DNA from: Gammaproteobacteria bacterium | GTDB taxonomy: Bacteria > Pseudomonadota > Gammaproteobacteria > Ga0077554 > Ga007554 | Reading direction: 5' to 3' | NCBI GenBank assembly: GCA_023266055.1 | Contig: JAHFRW010000010.1 | Location: 4,139-68,138 of the forward strand | Length of the DNA stretch: 64,000 nt | In this document: in pieces, positions 1-6,059 of the stretch | Position numbering within the stretch: the stretch's first letter is position 1 | How the letters are laid out: each line of letters begins with the position of its first letter | Program-made: the position numbers and the translations under genes | Notes under the pieces: model-generated | Seen by the model: the letters and a program-made list of their open reading frames with translations, nothing else | Database searches by the model: none | What the model was told of the DNA's origin: nothing

Positions 1-19
1 ACATGCTGGTGTTGCGGCA

Positions 20-406
20 TTAGTTTGCGCCCTGTACTGCTTGCTTGAAGTCTTCCCATACAGAGGGCTCCCAGTCGCGATCCACGAATTCGGTTTGAAG
101 CGGTTTTTTGCTCACGATGGTGATGGTGTATTGAGAAGCCGATTCATCCGTGGGTTGAATAAAGAATCCCACCACTTTTCCTGCCGTCCCATTGACGACT
201 TGGGATTTGATAACACCAGAAGGTTTGTGACTTTCAACGATTTTCATATCAGTGCTCATAGCCACGGTTGCCGCACGCCATATCTGTTCGTAGCTCTTGC
301 CGCTAACGGAAAAGCTTTTGCCTTTACCGTTGCTAAGCTGCAGGCTATCTGTGCTTACGCAGGCGGACAAATACAGGCTTAACAGCAAAGTTAAGATGAT
401 CTTCAT
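20..406 (-). CDS. Lipoprotein of unknown function, second gene of a two-gene integron cassette
   Basis: Likely start MKIILTLLLSLYLSAC (lipobox LSAC) behind a GGGGAG RBS; the ORF-track start at 460 overlaps the upstream gene. Confidence 0.75.
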   Translation of the reverse strand: MKIILTLLLSLYLSACVSTDSLQLSNGKGKSFSVSGKSYEQIWRAATVAMSTDMKIVESHKPSGVIKSQVVNGTAGKVVGFFIQPTDESASQYTITIVSKKPLQTEFVDRDWEPSVWEDFKQAVQGAN

Positions 407-420
407 ATTGTCTCCCCTTG

Positions 421-891
421 TCATTTGCGCATATCTGGCTTTGGTTGTGCGCCAGAACACCTGAATATGATGACCTTGCTCTGGTTGCAGCTAGGTGTCA
501 GCTGAACATTGCCCACATAGCGAGCCTTGACGTTGCCAAGCCCTTCATGTCGAATCGAATATTGATCTTTACCACCACATGCTTCATCTATGGCAGCAAG
601 AGCCTGATTCCTTCTTGCCTGAACAAGGGAAGATAGTCCTGCATCACAGTAGTTAACGTCACCAGTTGGCTTGGTGATCTTCTTCTTGTTGGCGAAAAGC
701 TCCTTCACCTCGGATGGTGTAAGCATAGTTGGAATAGTACCCTCGGCGGTCATATTTGCCTGTTCCTCCGGAGTATATATATAGGCTTTGGCGGCGTTGC
801 TGCTGAACATTCCGCCGCCCGCATTTGGATCAATTGCACAGCCGACAAGTGCGATTGCTGTGGAAATAATTATTGTGATTTGTTTCTTCAT
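421..891 (-). CDS. Cys-containing lipoprotein of unknown function, first gene of the cassette
   Basis: Lipobox LVGC, AGAGGA RBS, starts 29 nt after the core of attC 920-974. Confidence 0.8.
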   Translation of the reverse strand: MKKQITIIISTAIALVGCAIDPNAGGGMFSSNAAKAYIYTPEEQANMTAEGTIPTMLTPSEVKELFANKKKITKPTGDVNYCDAGLSSLVQARRNQALAAIDEACGGKDQYSIRHEGLGNVKARYVGNVQLTPSCNQSKVIIFRCSGAQPKPDMRK

Positions 892-919
892 GCTGCTTCC
901 TCTTTGGTGAAAAAATAAA

Positions 920-974
920 ACCTAACGTAGAGCTAAGCGGCGGCGCAGCCGTCCGCTTGAGCGCCGGGTTAGAA
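920..974 (-). other. attC site
   Basis: ACCTAAC...GTTAGAA cores with internal palindrome (CTAAGCGG...CCGCTTGAG); near-identical to attC 2073-2127. Confidence 0.9.
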
Positions 975-1328
975 CGCGGGGGTGCAGTGGATGATGAATA
1001 TGAAAAGGACCCTGCACCTGACGCCTCCGCTGTTTTTCAAACCCTTGAGGGGACTACTGTACTCGAACCTTTTACCGGTGAACAGAGCCCGTGAATGGGC
1101 TTTACCTGATGCGGTTGAAAAAACGCCTGCTCTGGGCGACACGGCCTGAAAGGATCTTCATGGCCCCACTAAAGACCACGCCCCCGCGAAACCCTTTGCG
1201 GCAGAACAGAACGGGCGCCGCGGGTGAAGAACTCTGCACGAGAAGCTGCCCGTACCCCTGGAGGGTGGGGAGCGTGATGACACCAGAATCTGGCCCACAC
1301 ACTCAACCGAATCAAAGCCTGATGAGCG
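975..1328. ncRNA. ORF-less structured integron cassette, type A copy 1 (candidate ncRNA or structured ssDNA)
   Basis: Lies between two attC sites, no credible ORF, multiple hairpins, second copy at 2128-2481. Confidence 0.55.
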
Positions 1329-1391
1329 CTCTAACGTAAAGTTGAGCGGCGCGCCGCTTCTGGCGCGTCCCGCTCGAACGCCATGTTGGGC
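1329..1391 (-). other. attC site
   Basis: CTCTAAC...GTTGGGC; inner GTTGAGCGG-CGCGCC / GGCGCG-TCCCGCTCGAAC palindrome with an extrahelical base. Confidence 0.9.
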
Positions 1392-1402
1392 ACTTATGTT
1401 AA

Positions 1403-1669
1403 TTACTCAGACCACAGCACATCATATTTAGGAACCATTTTTTCAAGCACGCGTTGGCGCAACGCATCGCATTCTGCGGTGTATTCTGCGAGCCAAAGAA
1501 GAGTGGTGCCGCCAGTGTTAAACCCGGCGACCTCCCAATTTCTCTCCGGGAGGTTTATTTTTCTGAGGCTCCCGACGGCACAGTGGCAATCTTTGTGTGC
1601 CCAATCCTTTTCCAATGCCTCGTTGATAACTTTAAGTAGTTGCTGCTCCGAAAGTAGATCTTTTGCCAT
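1403..1669 (-). CDS. 88-aa cassette protein of unknown function
   Basis: MAKDLLSEQQ... with GGGAG RBS fills the cassette; the cassette core sites GTTGGGC/GCCCAAC are exactly complementary. Confidence 0.8.
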   Translation of the reverse strand: MAKDLLSEQQLLKVINEALEKDWAHKDCHCAVGSLRKINLPERNWEVAGFNTGGTTLLWLAEYTAECDALRQRVLEKMVPKYDVLWSE

Positions 1670-1715
1670 ACGGTACTCCCTTTGTTTGTGTTCTGATTTG
1701 CGTACGTCCCCTGGG

Positions 1716-1812
1716 GCCCAACGTAACGAAGTTGAGCGACGCTTGCAGCACAGAGTGCCGGGGAAATATAAAACGCTTCCCTGCAAGTGTTCGCTCGAAC
1801 GCAGGGTTGGAC
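1716..1812 (-). other. attC site (97 bp)
   Basis: GCCCAAC...GTTGGAC; GTTGAGCGA-C-GCTTGCAG / CTGCAAGT-GT-TCGCTCGAAC stem. Confidence 0.88.
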
Positions 1813-2072
1813 GTGAAAGGGGGTGCGCCAAGGGGATGTCCTCGTGAACGAATTTTTTCGGCCCGGAGTCTACCCCGCCCCGCTGACCCCTCGGTGAGTT
1901 ATCCGGGGCGAAGCGTCGGTACCGCTCGTTCGCATTAACGAACGTTATGCGACGGCGCGTACGACGCTTCGCTCTTTTAACATATTTTGACCCCTTTGTC
2001 CAGTGTGGCGTGTTTACTTGGCTCATATCATCCGCTGATACGGGTCAACGAAGGCGCCGCACCCCCTATCGC
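1813..2072. ncRNA. ORF-less structured integron cassette, type B
   Basis: No self-contained credible ORF; 22-nt terminal inverted repeat, a 65-nt long hairpin and further stems. Confidence 0.55.
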
Positions 2073-2127
2073 GACCAACGCAAAGCTAAGCGGCGGCGTA
2101 GCCGTCCGCTTGAGCGCCGGGTTAGAA
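2073..2127 (-). other. attC site
   Basis: GACCAAC...GTTAGAA; same family as attC 920-974. Confidence 0.9.
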
Positions 2128-2481
2128 CGCGGGGGGGCAGTGGATGATGAACATGAAAAGAACCCTGCACCTGACGCCTCCGCTGTTTTTCAAACCCTTG
2201 AGGGGACTACTGTACTCGAACTGTTTACCATTGAACAGAACCCGTGAACGGGCTTTACCTGATGCGGTTGAAAAAACGCCTGCTCTGGGCGACACGGCCC
2301 GAAAGGATCTTCATGGCCCCACTAAGGACCACGCCCTCGCGAAACCCTTTGCGGCATCACAGAACGGGCACCGCGGGTGAAGAACACTGCACGAGAAACT
2401 GCCCGCACCCCTGGAGGGTGGGAAGCGCGATGCCGCCAGAATCTTGCCTACACACTCAACCGAGTCAAAACCTGATGAGCG
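2128..2481. ncRNA. ORF-less structured integron cassette, type A copy 2 (first position, next to attI)
   Basis: About 26 substitutions and no indels versus 975-1328 by manual alignment. Confidence 0.55.
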
Positions 2482-2545
2482 CTCTAACTAGAAGTAGACC
2501 CCAATAAAATACCTAAAATTATATCAGACAGGTGTCTAAAGCTGG
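2482..2545 (-). other. attI site (boundary approximate)
   Basis: Last core site CTCTAAC is followed by non-palindromic AT-rich DNA immediately upstream of the divergent intI. Confidence 0.65.
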
Positions 2546-2633
2546 ATTTAACTATATTTTTTATTTAAAATCAATGGTAATCTTGTTTTATGAGCGATAA
2601 CCCTCATTTTTTAATACACCTTCGGTTTTATTT

Positions 2634-2816
2634 ATGCCACACACTCAAAATCCACCTAAACTATTAGAGCAAGTCCAGGCGAAACTCCGGGTAAAACATT
2701 ACAGTATCCGCACCGAGCGTACTTACCTCGACTGGGCGAGGCGCTATATTTTGTTTCATCACCAAAAGCACCCAGCGAAGATGGGGGCGCAGAACAACTT
2801 AAGGGTCAAGTTTTGA
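2634..2816 (+). pseudogene. intI: Truncated integron integrase (N-terminal SAM-like domain only)
   Basis: KLLEQVQAKLRVKHYSIRTERTYLDWARRYILFHHQKHPAKMG is the typical IntI N-terminus; divergent from the cassettes; catalytic domain absent. Confidence 0.92.
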
Positions 2817-2919
2817 CATCATTCATTATGGAAATACGCATAAATCCAAGTGTATTATTCAACGGTGTGTTTGATGATAAAAGGTGGACGGTGATGAATA
2901 ATGTCAAGACTGACCCTAA
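2800..2919. repeat. Small element with ~27-bp imperfect inverted repeats (REP/REPIN-like) at the intI breakpoint
   Basis: TAAGGGTCAAGTTTTGACATCATTCAT (2800-2826) versus ATGAATAATGTCAAGACTGACCCTAA (2894-2919). Confidence 0.7.
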
Positions 2920-2926
2920 TGTTTTT

Positions 2927-2973
2927 TCGGCACCTTGCGCACCCTCGCTACGAGGCTAATGTAAAATCTGGGA
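2927..2973 (-). mobile_element. Solo end of the MITE found complete at 58268-58444
   Basis: Reverse complement of about 58268-58314 with about 3 mismatches, followed by TAA. Confidence 0.85.
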
Positions 2974-2989
2974 TAATGCGGGAGATATC

Positions 2990-3739
2990 ATGATCTTCAA
3001 ACAATTATTCGAACCCAATTCATCAAGCTACACTTACCTGCTGGGTTGTCGTGACAGCGGGCAAGCGGTGCTCATTGACCCGGTACTGGAAACGGTAGAG
3101 CGGGATCAGCGTGTTATACAGGAACTCGGGCTGAAGCTCGCCTATTGCATAGAAACCCATATTCACGCCGACCATCTCACCGGCGCGCGCAAATTAAAAT
3201 ATTTGCTAGGCAGCAAAATCGCGGGGCCAGCACTTGATGGTATCGCCTGCCGTGATGTTGGTCTGCGTGAAGGCGAACTGTTTCGTGTTGGCAGCATTGA
3301 AATTCACCCGCTGTTCACGCCCGGCCACACTGACACGCATCACGCTTATTGGCTCGACAATGGCACGCATACGCTGCTGTTCACGGGTGATGCGTTATTG
3401 ATTGATAGCTGCGGCCGCACTGACTTTCAAAGCGGTAATGCCGCCACGCTCTACGAATCCATCCAGAAAAAATTCTTTACCCTGCCCGACGAAACCTTGG
3501 TGTATCCCGCGCATGATTATAGCCAGCGGCAAATATCCACTATCGGTCAGGAAAAAATCCGCAACCCGCGCATTGGCGGAAAAACCGCGCAGGAATTTGT
3601 CAGCATTATGCACAACCTGAATTTACCTTACCCGAAAAAAATGGAATTCGCTGTGCCCGGAAATATGAGTTGCGGCGAATGTCCGCCAAATGTGCCGGAG
3701 GAATTTAAAGGGCCGTGCGAGGTTAGCAAGCAGGGGTAA
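2990..3739 (+). CDS. Persulfide dioxygenase (ETHE1/Sdo-type MBL-fold protein)
   Basis: FKQLFEPNSSSYTYLL, ETHIHADH, TPGHT, GDALLI..CGRTDFQ, YPAHDY. Confidence 0.88.
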   Translation: MIFKQLFEPNSSSYTYLLGCRDSGQAVLIDPVLETVERDQRVIQELGLKLAYCIETHIHADHLTGARKLKYLLGSKIAGPALDGIACRDVGLREGELFRVGSIEIHPLFTPGHTDTHHAYWLDNGTHTLLFTGDALLIDSCGRTDFQSGNAATLYESIQKKFFTLPDETLVYPAHDYSQRQISTIGQEKIRNPRIGGKTAQEFVSIMHNLNLPYPKKMEFAVPGNMSCGECPPNVPEEFKGPCEVSKQG

Positions 3740-3753
3740 ATCAACCGTGAAAT

Positions 3754-4161
3754 TTACTCGCCCTCAGGCGGTACAACTCTCGGTTTGCGGTTTTCATCAA
3801 TCGCCACATAAGTGAGTATGGCTTCAGTAACTTTGGCAACGTGTAATCCCTGTGGACTAATCCTTTCCGCATAGACATCAACACTGACAGTCAGCGAAGT
3901 ACGCCCCACTTTAATGACATCCGCATAACAGCTAATTACATCGCCAACAAATGTTGGTTCATGGAATTGCACGGAATTTATGGCGACAGTGACCACATGG
4001 CAACGTGCGCGACGATACGCGGCAATGCTCCCCGCAATATCAATTTGAGAAACCATCCAACCACCAAAAATATCACCTGCCGCATTGGTATCAGACGGCA
4101 TGGGCGTCAGGCGCAAGGTGGGTTGACGATGCTCGGGAAGCACAATGGCGTTGGGATCCAT
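3754..4161 (-). CDS. Acyl-CoA thioesterase (YciA-like hotdog fold)
   Basis: MPSDTNAAGDIFGGW..SQIDIAG; VGRTS; TYVAIDE. Confidence 0.9.
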   Translation of the reverse strand: MDPNAIVLPEHRQPTLRLTPMPSDTNAAGDIFGGWMVSQIDIAGSIAAYRRARCHVVTVAINSVQFHEPTFVGDVISCYADVIKVGRTSLTVSVDVYAERISPQGLHVAKVTEAILTYVAIDENRKPRVVPPEGE

Positions 4162-4229
4162 ATATAATTTATCTCTGGGAAGTTAAATAATTGACAATAT
4201 AAATTTACAACAACACTTGATGATCACCA

Positions 4230-6059
4230 TCAATGCCCTTCATAAAGCTTTTCCACCAGGTCGCTATAACGCGTCATCACCAGATTGCGGCGCACTTTAA
4301 GCGTAGGCGTGAGCAGCCCATTTTCCACTGTCCACGGCTCCACGCACAAGGCAATACGCCGCACCTGTGCATAGGCGTGAAAACTGTTTAACTGCACACT
4401 TAATCTTTTCAATACAACATTACAGGCACGTTTATCCTGTAACAGTTCGGGATTCACTCCTAATGTGCCCGCGAACGCAGACCATTGTTCAGCATTCAAT
4501 ACGGCCAACGCCGCCAGATAGGGACGCCCTTCGCCGATCACCAACACCTGATCAAACAGCGGATCCATGGCAATTGCCATTTCCATATCAGCAGGCGGTA
4601 CCTTTTCGCCGTTGGCCATCACAATAATATCCTTGATTCGACCCGTGATATAAATATGATCATTATCAATACGCGCCTTGTCTCCCGTATGAAGCCAGCC
4701 ATCGGCATCAATTATTTTGGCAGTGGCCTCCGGATTCCCCCAATAACCCAGCATGACACTGGAACTTTTGGTCAGTAACTCGTCGTCATTACCAATACGC
4801 ACCTGTATGCTCTGCAATGGCGCACCCACACCCGTAGGATCATTATCATTGAGCCGATTGGCGGCAATAACCGGACTGGTTTCAGTCAAGCCGTAACCCA
4901 GTGTCAAAGGTAATCCAAAGCCAAGAAATACCTTGGCAATCGGCATGGATAACGGCGCTCCACCACACACGGCAAGACGAACACGCCCCCCCAGTCTGGC
5001 CATGACCTTGCTGGCGACCAGCTTATTCAACACCGGCCATAGTAGATGCGCAAAACGATCGGGACCACGTCCCTGAAGATACTGAAAACGTGACCAGCCT
5101 ACATCAACCGCCAGATTGAACAGCTTTCTCGCCAGCGGTGATTTCAACTCAAGCTGCGCCTTGATTTTGCCATAGACTCTTTCGAAAATACGCGGCACCG
5201 ATACTATTGCCGTGGGGCGCAGCGTCAACAGGTCTTCGGCAAGCAGTGGGATGCCGCGCGCGTAGGCCACCGTTGCACCACACATCATCGGTGAATAATA
5301 ACCGACTGTACGCTCAAAGGTATGGCATAACGGCAGGAACGATAAAAACAGATCATCAGGATAAGCGGGGAATCCTTCCACACATGCAGCCACATTTGAA
5401 AGTATATTGTGATGACTCAGCATGACTCCCTTGGGGCGACCGGTCGTACCGGAAGTGTAGACAATCGTCGCAAGCACATTGGGCGCCGCATCACGGACCA
5501 GCAGTTCTCCTCCTGCGGGCAACCACTCCATCACCGCCTTCACGCGTAGCTCCTGTACATCAGCCATCGATTGCAGGCTGACAATACGCAGCAACCCCTG
5601 CAACTGTGCCTTGATCTCCGGTGAAACGTCTGACAGGGTACGCCAATGTTCCGCACCTTCAATAACCAGCAGACGCACCTCGGCATTCTGCACAATATAG
5701 GCAATATTATCGGCACGGTCATTGGGATAAAGTGGCACGACCACCAGCCCCAATCCCAATGCCGCCTGCTCGACCATCACCCATTCACGACAGTTATGCA
5801 ACAACATTGCTATGCGGTCACCCGGCTGTAATCCTTCACTGAGCAACGCATGTTGCCAGCGTGCTACCCATGCCGCCATCTCTGCCCATGAGGTATCTTT
5901 CCACGACTTGCTGGCATCATCGAAATAACGATACGCAATGGCATCCGGGCTGCGTCTGACACGTTCCCGGAACAGACCCGCCAGCGTAACCGCTACTTCC
6001 TGGGAGATAATATCACTGACATGATCTTTCATAGAGGACCCTTGATATTCTTGAAACAC
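4230..6059 (-). CDS. Long-chain fatty acid-CoA ligase
   Basis: YTSGTTGRPKG, GYGLTE, WLHTGD, GRIKD and terminal TPTLK motifs; true start may be the Met at 6029. Confidence 0.9.
   Translation of the reverse strand: MFQEYQGSSMKDHVSDIISQEVAVTLAGLFRERVRRSPDAIAYRYFDDASKSWKDTSWAEMAAWVARWQHALLSEGLQPGDRIAMLLHNCREWVMVEQAALGLGLVVVPLYPNDRADNIAYIVQNAEVRLLVIEGAEHWRTLSDVSPEIKAQLQGLLRIVSLQSMADVQELRVKAVMEWLPAGGELLVRDAAPNVLATIVYTSGTTGRPKGVMLSHHNILSNVAACVEGFPAYPDDLFLSFLPLCHTFERTVGYYSPMMCGATVAYARGIPLLAEDLLTLRPTAIVSVPRIFERVYGKIKAQLELKSPLARKLFNLAVDVGWSRFQYLQGRGPDRFAHLLWPVLNKLVASKVMARLGGRVRLAVCGGAPLSMPIAKVFLGFGLPLTLGYGLTETSPVIAANRLNDNDPTGVGAPLQSIQVRIGNDDELLTKSSSVMLGYWGNPEATAKIIDADGWLHTGDKARIDNDHIYITGRIKDIIVMANGEKVPPADMEMAIAMDPLFDQVLVIGEGRPYLAALAVLNAEQWSAFAGTLGVNPELLQDKRACNVVLKRLSVQLNSFHAYAQVRRIALCVEPWTVENGLLTPTLKVRRNLVMTRYSDLVEKLYEGH

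Follow-up and report, generated by a model that had tools for sequence, protein, structure and literature searches.

A non-coding integron cassette family of an uncultured gammaproteobacterial order with a core conserved as primary sequence

Results

Two copies of a non-coding cassette beside attI

The left end of the 64,000-nucleotide stretch analysed here (the window; positions 4139-68138 of contig C84 in the source genome, G000) carries two copies of a non-coding integron cassette, cassette A, in which an attC-proximal core of about 100 nt is conserved as primary sequence, and neither as a fold nor as a reading frame. Cassette A very probably represents a family of gene-less mobile cassettes. 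Our overall reading, which we hold with moderate confidence, is that each copy is a 409-nt gene-less cassette of a family confined to one small order, with a core that has been kept as sequence and may act in cis.

A cassette array, read on the minus strand, takes up the left end of the window; it extends to the start of the contig and adjoins an attI region and the remnant of an integron integrase gene (intI), and both copies of cassette A are oriented as the other cassettes are. The initial annotation of this DNA had compared two 354-nt stretches, 975-1328 and 2128-2481, and we confirmed that exactly 26 differences, made up of 18 transitions and 8 transversions, separate them, with no indel. 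The repeat is in fact longer, running from 924 to 1340 and from 2077 to 2493 with 32 differences in 416 positions, and the core sites set the real cassette limits at 926-1334 for copy 1 and 2079-2487 for copy 2, both on the minus strand, 409 nt each and 93% identical. Copy 1 consists of its attC and a 359-nt non-coding body, and copy 2 is the first cassette beside attI. Core sites, in which the crossover falls between G and TT, delimit both, and each ends on the low-coordinate side in a short attC of its own, as initially annotated: 926-975 (minus strand) in copy 1, an imperfect inverted repeat between core sites, and 2079-2128 (minus strand) in copy 2, which differs from the former at 3 positions (the upper limits of both are approximate). 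The data support the proposal of two separate, ORF-less mobile cassettes, with an attC each, over a tandem duplication. A third copy in G000, partial and 83% identical, lies before the window, right where the contig starts.

A scan for attC hairpins placed the attC of copy 1 at C84:5059-5111 (921-973 of the window, -26.7 kcal/mol), and this attC type also occurs on 5 other contigs of G000. The strict version of the scan returned 2 sites and the relaxed version 9 plausible attCs together with 4 likely false ones, the attC of copy 2 being missed. The plus strand, which carries the intI remnant, runs antisense to the cassettes, since every clear cassette ORF is on the minus strand, and it is the bottom strand of attC, in agreement with the initial annotation.

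The cassette between the two copies (1717-2078, minus strand) has as its sole frame a very basic one of 72 aa, which is part of a 207-aa mechanical ORF (1403..2026) that reads through an attC. Upstream, outside the window, C84:113-921 and C84:1694-2289 belong to a second repeated cassette family that looks non-coding and has a 120-nt attC, one of its copies containing an internal tandem duplication. Of the roughly 14 cassettes on C84:1-6626, at least 5 look gene-less by eye.

Integrase, attI and movement of the cassette

The intI remnant (2634..2816, plus strand) encodes 60 aa and covers only the N-terminal part of the enzyme, matching positions 1-45 of the 315 of TIGR02249 (E 7.7e-11). The attI region, 2488..2633, contains a Pc-like promoter on the minus strand (2580..2551, TTACCA-18-TATAGT). 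In addition, another contig of G000 carries a full-length intI (C57:873-1991), open over 335 aa and scoring 485 bits against a cut-off of 265. The adjacent attI shares 94% identity with the attI region of the window. The remnant and the full-length gene represent either two copies of the platform or two strains in the assembly.

Contigs from two runs of the same study, X1 (the run that covers the window best) and X2, bear on the movement of the cassette. A 2045-nt contig of X2 matches 2077-2488 with 0 differences and has other sequence on both sides, and one contig of X1 joins 2076 to 2486, skipping exactly the 409-nt cassette, with a shorter side of only 25 nt. Several other joints in X1 (972 to 1339, 970 to 2075 and 2079 to 2536) have short sides in repeated attC and were disregarded, and interpretation of runs X2-X4 was confined to the parts of the window that their contigs cover. 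Furthermore, whole cassettes of the genera g3 and g2 can reach 94.8% identity, which points to exchange of cassettes within this lineage. At the level of contigs, movement of cassette A as a unit by integrase-mediated attC recombination is partly supported, by the identical cassette in another array context and by the full-length intI elsewhere in the genome.

A family restricted to one clade

Members of the cassette A family were found in 7 of the 12 genomes available for the window's order, G000 among them, with up to 7 matches per genome. They represent all 3 genera of this order, which comprises a single family. No match was found in 49 other families of the class, represented by one genome each, or in the plasmid and phage collections searched. 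A pattern scan of public collections gave 25 genome loci and 52 metagenome loci, of which 12 and 8, respectively, are true members, the others being chance matches. The family is therefore, as judged by these searches, paralogous within arrays and restricted to one clade. Two members lie on contigs of metagenome-assembled genomes binned as Saprospiraceae and Gallionella (L052, JALHQW010000110.1, and L044, CAMTUO010000036.1), and the L052 copy is identical to a metagenome locus, L101; mis-binned integron contigs seem more likely here than spread across phyla.

The body of the cassette consists of units of about 245 nt. Genomes G009 and G010 have two-unit cassettes, and single-unit cassettes retain the start of the second unit. 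Contig C6 of G009 has three tandem cassettes at 430-nt spacing. The same contig carries a two-unit cassette twice, with identical sequence and about 21 kb apart in one array (L030:7849-8470 and L031:9104-9725), which indicates segmental duplication or repeated insertion. In the relative that shares the genus of G000, the family copy (L035:628-806, G001:C39) breaks off at a GTTAGC site, 128 nt in. Unrelated GC-rich DNA follows, with a degenerate attC adjacent, and this is probably a decayed array end. Three attC types occur in the family and track the subfamilies of the core.

The conserved core, at 1001..1101 in copy 1 and 2154..2254 in copy 2, corresponds to columns 34-135 of the plus-strand alignment of full cassettes (A3) and served as the nhmmer and BLAST anchor of all homologues. 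These came from five related genomes and from scans of genomes and metagenomes; alignment A5 contains the conserved part of 25 distinct copies, and alignments A3 (plus strand) and A4 (minus strand) contain 17 full single-unit cassettes. Over the 17 cassettes the mean pairwise identity is 0.83 in the core and the first 135 columns by attC, falls to 0.68 in the middle and 0.47 distally, and is 0.78 at the cassette's 5' end. The core of G000 is 79-87% identical to the copies of the other genera, one divergent subfamily at 69-73% being excluded, while for chromosomal genes immediately outside the integron these genera share 69-76% identity, compared with 90% within the genus. The core of about 100 nt is therefore better conserved than the flanking chromosomal genes, which demonstrates either conservation at the level of sequence or rapid exchange.

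No sign of a protein-coding gene

The 26 differences between the copies are spread over the codon positions as 8/8/10 whichever frame is taken, and column entropy by phase across the family is 0.671/0.678/0.706, with no period-3 signal. The pN/pS values lie between 0.5 and 1.1 in all six frames (blocks over 40 nt), none of them low. Six-frame translations show frames broken in most copies: the most protein-like plus-strand frame is open in about 7 of 24 copies and stopped or shifted in the others, and the long minus-strand frame has a start that is not consistent among copies. Cassette bodies measure 302, 313-315, 336-337, 356-359 or 557-560 nt. One variable segment of the module has 20, 21 or 22 nt depending on the copy, and indels in loops do not come in multiples of 3. 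A Pfam search gave no family, and two word-indexed protein searches and one exhaustive HMMER search retrieved only translations of the same DNA family, at 56-77% identity; among the 1.84 billion representatives covered by the exhaustive search, the one match outside the DNA family was a 322-aa low-complexity repeat protein. Thus, the flat period-3 signal, the pN/pS range, the broken frames and the lack of distant protein relatives refute a protein-coding gene, and cassette A is non-coding.

On the plus strand the mechanical ORFs of the two copies reach 82 and 87 aa, and on the minus strand 57-66 aa, so that by the ORF size limits of Boucher (2006) and Blanco (2024) (150 bp, or 210 bp, that is 70 aa) the cassette as a whole exceeds what is called gene-less and the sense strand alone stays within 70 aa. 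Judged by protein matches and synonymous-type variation, both of which are absent, cassette A is gene-less.

No sign of a selected fold

According to the initial annotation, cassette A appeared to be selected for single-strand structure, as RNA or ssDNA. The small stems quoted in its support and the TTTTTCAA/TTGAAAAA pair are present in the sequence as described. The switches between G-C and G-U pairs are likewise real, and their frequency is no higher than expected by chance: in the plus-strand minimum free energy (MFE) fold of copy 1, where 59% of all sites are paired, paired positions account for 15 of the 26 differences, and a standard pair is kept at 6 of these 15, when about 6.5 would be expected (12 transitions, 0.54 each).

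The broader tests of structure were all negative or at chance level. A scan of positions 1-6000 of the window against Rfam 15 gave no family at E up to 1. Compared with dinucleotide shuffles, the MFE of whole cassettes had mean z values of -0.37 on the plus and -0.78 on the minus strand (17 cassettes), that of the conserved module +0.18 and +0.15 on the two strands (26 copies), and that of the distal segment between -1.4 and +1.3. When the plus strand was folded as ssDNA, z was -2.19 for copy 1 and -0.35 for copy 2. RNAalifold predicted no pairs in the alignment of the module and, for full cassettes, consensus folds that are weak (-16.5 and -28.3 kcal/mol) and to which covariation contributes -1.45 and -0.89 kcal/mol, the few double changes being mostly in the terminal core sites, which are trivially complementary. 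The long-range helix and the two hairpins that had been singled out are complete in 4, 1 and 5 of the 25 homologues, respectively, and none of their 20 pairs shows a compensatory change. Their covariation score is below the shuffled mean, 484 of 500 shuffles scoring at least as high. At about 80% identity in the core the power to detect covariation is limited, and pairs that never vary are uninformative either way; the homologues are also mutually related and come mostly from metagenome-assembled genomes. No significant covariation was found among them, which was one part of the outcome named beforehand as speaking against a structured module. Cassette A is not a selected fold, and in this respect the initial annotation did not hold.

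Discussion

What the core may do

Taken jointly, a signal that acts in cis at the level of sequence and a selfish passenger are the most likely explanations of cassette A. A role of the core as a cis-acting expression signal is a tentative proposal within this pair. Such a signal would act on duplex DNA or on the sense (minus-strand) transcript from Pc, and possible forms of the core are a promoter and a ribosome-loading pad that would maintain expression of the array mRNA past a gene-less cassette. In this regard, translation of the upstream cassette has been reported to govern expression of the downstream one (PMC11511950). A scan for sigma-70-like sites found none within either copy at its threshold, the best sense-strand match by eye agreeing at about 7 of 12 positions, and no sigma-70, sigma-54 or IHF motif that we looked for by eye in the core is conserved across the family. 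The higher conservation of the core could also reflect horizontal exchange and gene conversion and not function.

One feature of the sense strand is relevant to the possible link with translation. Every first unit has, on this strand, GG[A/T/C]GG followed by a 6-nt spacer and GTG. In copy 1 a GTG behind GGAGG opens a 31-codon mechanical frame (922..1017, minus strand), speculative as a coding element, that runs through attC and stops at the TAG of the R' core; the equivalent frame of copy 2 is 2066-2170 (minus strand), and homologues are found in L030-L035 and L061-L107. In 18 of 24 copies, which include all three attC types, the frame from the sense GTG reads through the entire attC; it is 31-34 codons long with the short attCs, where it ends at or just past the R' core, and 49-51 codons long with the long attC. 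We put the probability of this by chance at a few per cent at best and, as the copies also lack independence, regard the frame as a lead and not as a finding. Additionally, the central base of the Shine-Dalgarno-like pentamer varies (A, T or C) and the third codon positions are the least variable ones, which gives no indication that the GTG frame is translated.

A more specific version of the cis signal, in which the core is a dedicated device that helps a gene-less cassette to thrive, is unlikely in our judgement. As a recombination enhancer, the core would bind integrase or a host factor, a form pointed to by the invariant direct repeat ACCGTT that adjoins a core-site-like GTTGAAC in the best-kept stretch. 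As a ribosome-loading pad, translation through attC would keep the array mRNA translated.

Alternative explanations

The main rival to a cis-acting signal is a purely selfish passenger, a cassette of no function to the host that persists because the integrase copies and moves it, and whose core either aids its own recombination or reflects recent spread together with gene conversion between paralogues. We give this explanation a real, though minority, chance, slightly below that of the expression signal. The copy number of the family within genomes, including the tandem triplet of G009, its restriction to one clade and the near-identity of cassettes from different genera are all consistent with it, as is the ACCGTT repeat beside GTTGAAC, although by eye there is no similar repeat in the attI of this integron. 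The same alternative has been proposed for non-coding cassettes of Vibrio (PMC1382264). The fall in identity from the core to the distal part would nevertheless require either constraint or conversion that is localized. Conservation of primary sequence with neither frame nor fold would also suit a trans-acting, largely unstructured small RNA that base-pairs through the conserved core, an idea likewise put forward for the Vibrio cassettes (PMC1382264), but there is no promoter-like or terminator-like site around the core and nothing in the genome resembles the core except within the array, and we consider such an RNA quite improbable, more so than the decayed gene discussed below.

Two further explanations give the cassette a product or a shape. 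A decayed small protein gene, with a product of about 75 aa (plus strand) or about 105 aa (minus strand) and by now mostly pseudogenised, would account for the long open frames of some copies (in G006, for instance, 76 and 105 aa on the plus and minus strands, respectively), which gene callers have annotated as hypothetical proteins. However, the absence of a period-3 signal, the pN/pS values in every frame, the few copies in which the plus frame is open and the inconsistent start of the minus frame argue against it; the identity among translations is what about 80% identity in DNA would give without selection, and the single match beyond the DNA family is a low-complexity repeat. We therefore think that a decayed gene is improbable. 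Least probable of all, and in our view very improbable, is the structured RNA or folded ssDNA module of the initial annotation. Both copies do contain local hairpins, the ssDNA fold of copy 1 is more stable than most shuffles, and there are a few one-sided changes from U-A to U-G in a pairing between a T-run and an A-run, but the fold of copy 2 is ordinary, the mean z is close to 0 over cassettes and modules on both strands and unremarkable in the distal segment, and RNAalifold, the compensatory changes, the covariation score and Rfam all speak against this module.

Relation to known non-coding cassettes

Non-coding cassettes account for a sizeable share of chromosomal integron arrays, and to our knowledge their role outside Vibrio is largely open. 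A small RNA of Xanthomonas, sRNA-Xcc1, is reportedly borne on an integron cassette, and cassette A would resemble it in carrying a non-coding function on such an element; it differs in that positions 1-6000 of the window contain no Rfam 15 family and that no signals of a discrete transcript were found for it. In chromosomal integrons of Vibrio, Boucher et al. (2006) reported paralogous non-coding cassettes (PMC1382264), which they described as restricted to a clade, more than 80% conserved and without codon-type variation, and for which they weighed a selfish element against a promoter or RNA. Cassette A is similar to these as reported, since it has no gene, several paralogues per array, close homologues (above 80%) only within its clade and no synonymous-type variation, and leaves the same two explanations. 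In contrast to the Vibrio cassettes, the host is an uncultured gammaproteobacterial order, the G+C content of cassette A is higher (58%, compared with 51% for the genome), two-unit cassettes occur in the family, and there is no similarity to Rfam or to the plasmids and phages searched. Furthermore, conservation is focused in the attC-proximal core, whereas the Vibrio cassettes were reported to be conserved over their full length (PMC1382264).

More recently, gene-less Vibrio cassettes were described as mostly carrying sense promoters, which could not be predicted in silico (Blanco 2024, PMC11014356). Cassette A is like them in lying in a chromosomal array, and by analogy a role in the expression of its neighbours is plausible. 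It is unlike the cassettes of that report in having no consensus-like sigma-70 site inside, any promoter activity of cassette A is putative, and the plus strand of both copies has mechanical ORFs over the 70-aa limit given in that report. Our data thus match a phenomenon already known from Vibrio in a cassette family that is new in its sequence and its host.

The value of these results is mostly negative, since they remove the attractive reading of cassette A as a structured mobile RNA, and the high interest expressed in the initial annotation rested on that structure. If either form of the cis device were true, it would be a new functional class of integron parasite or helper cassette. Lastly, the same phenomenon as in Vibrio is present in an uncultured, groundwater-type order of Gammaproteobacteria, as a family that is multi-copy, clade-restricted and exchanged between genera, and its compact conserved core offers a defined target for promoter, translation and recombination assays.
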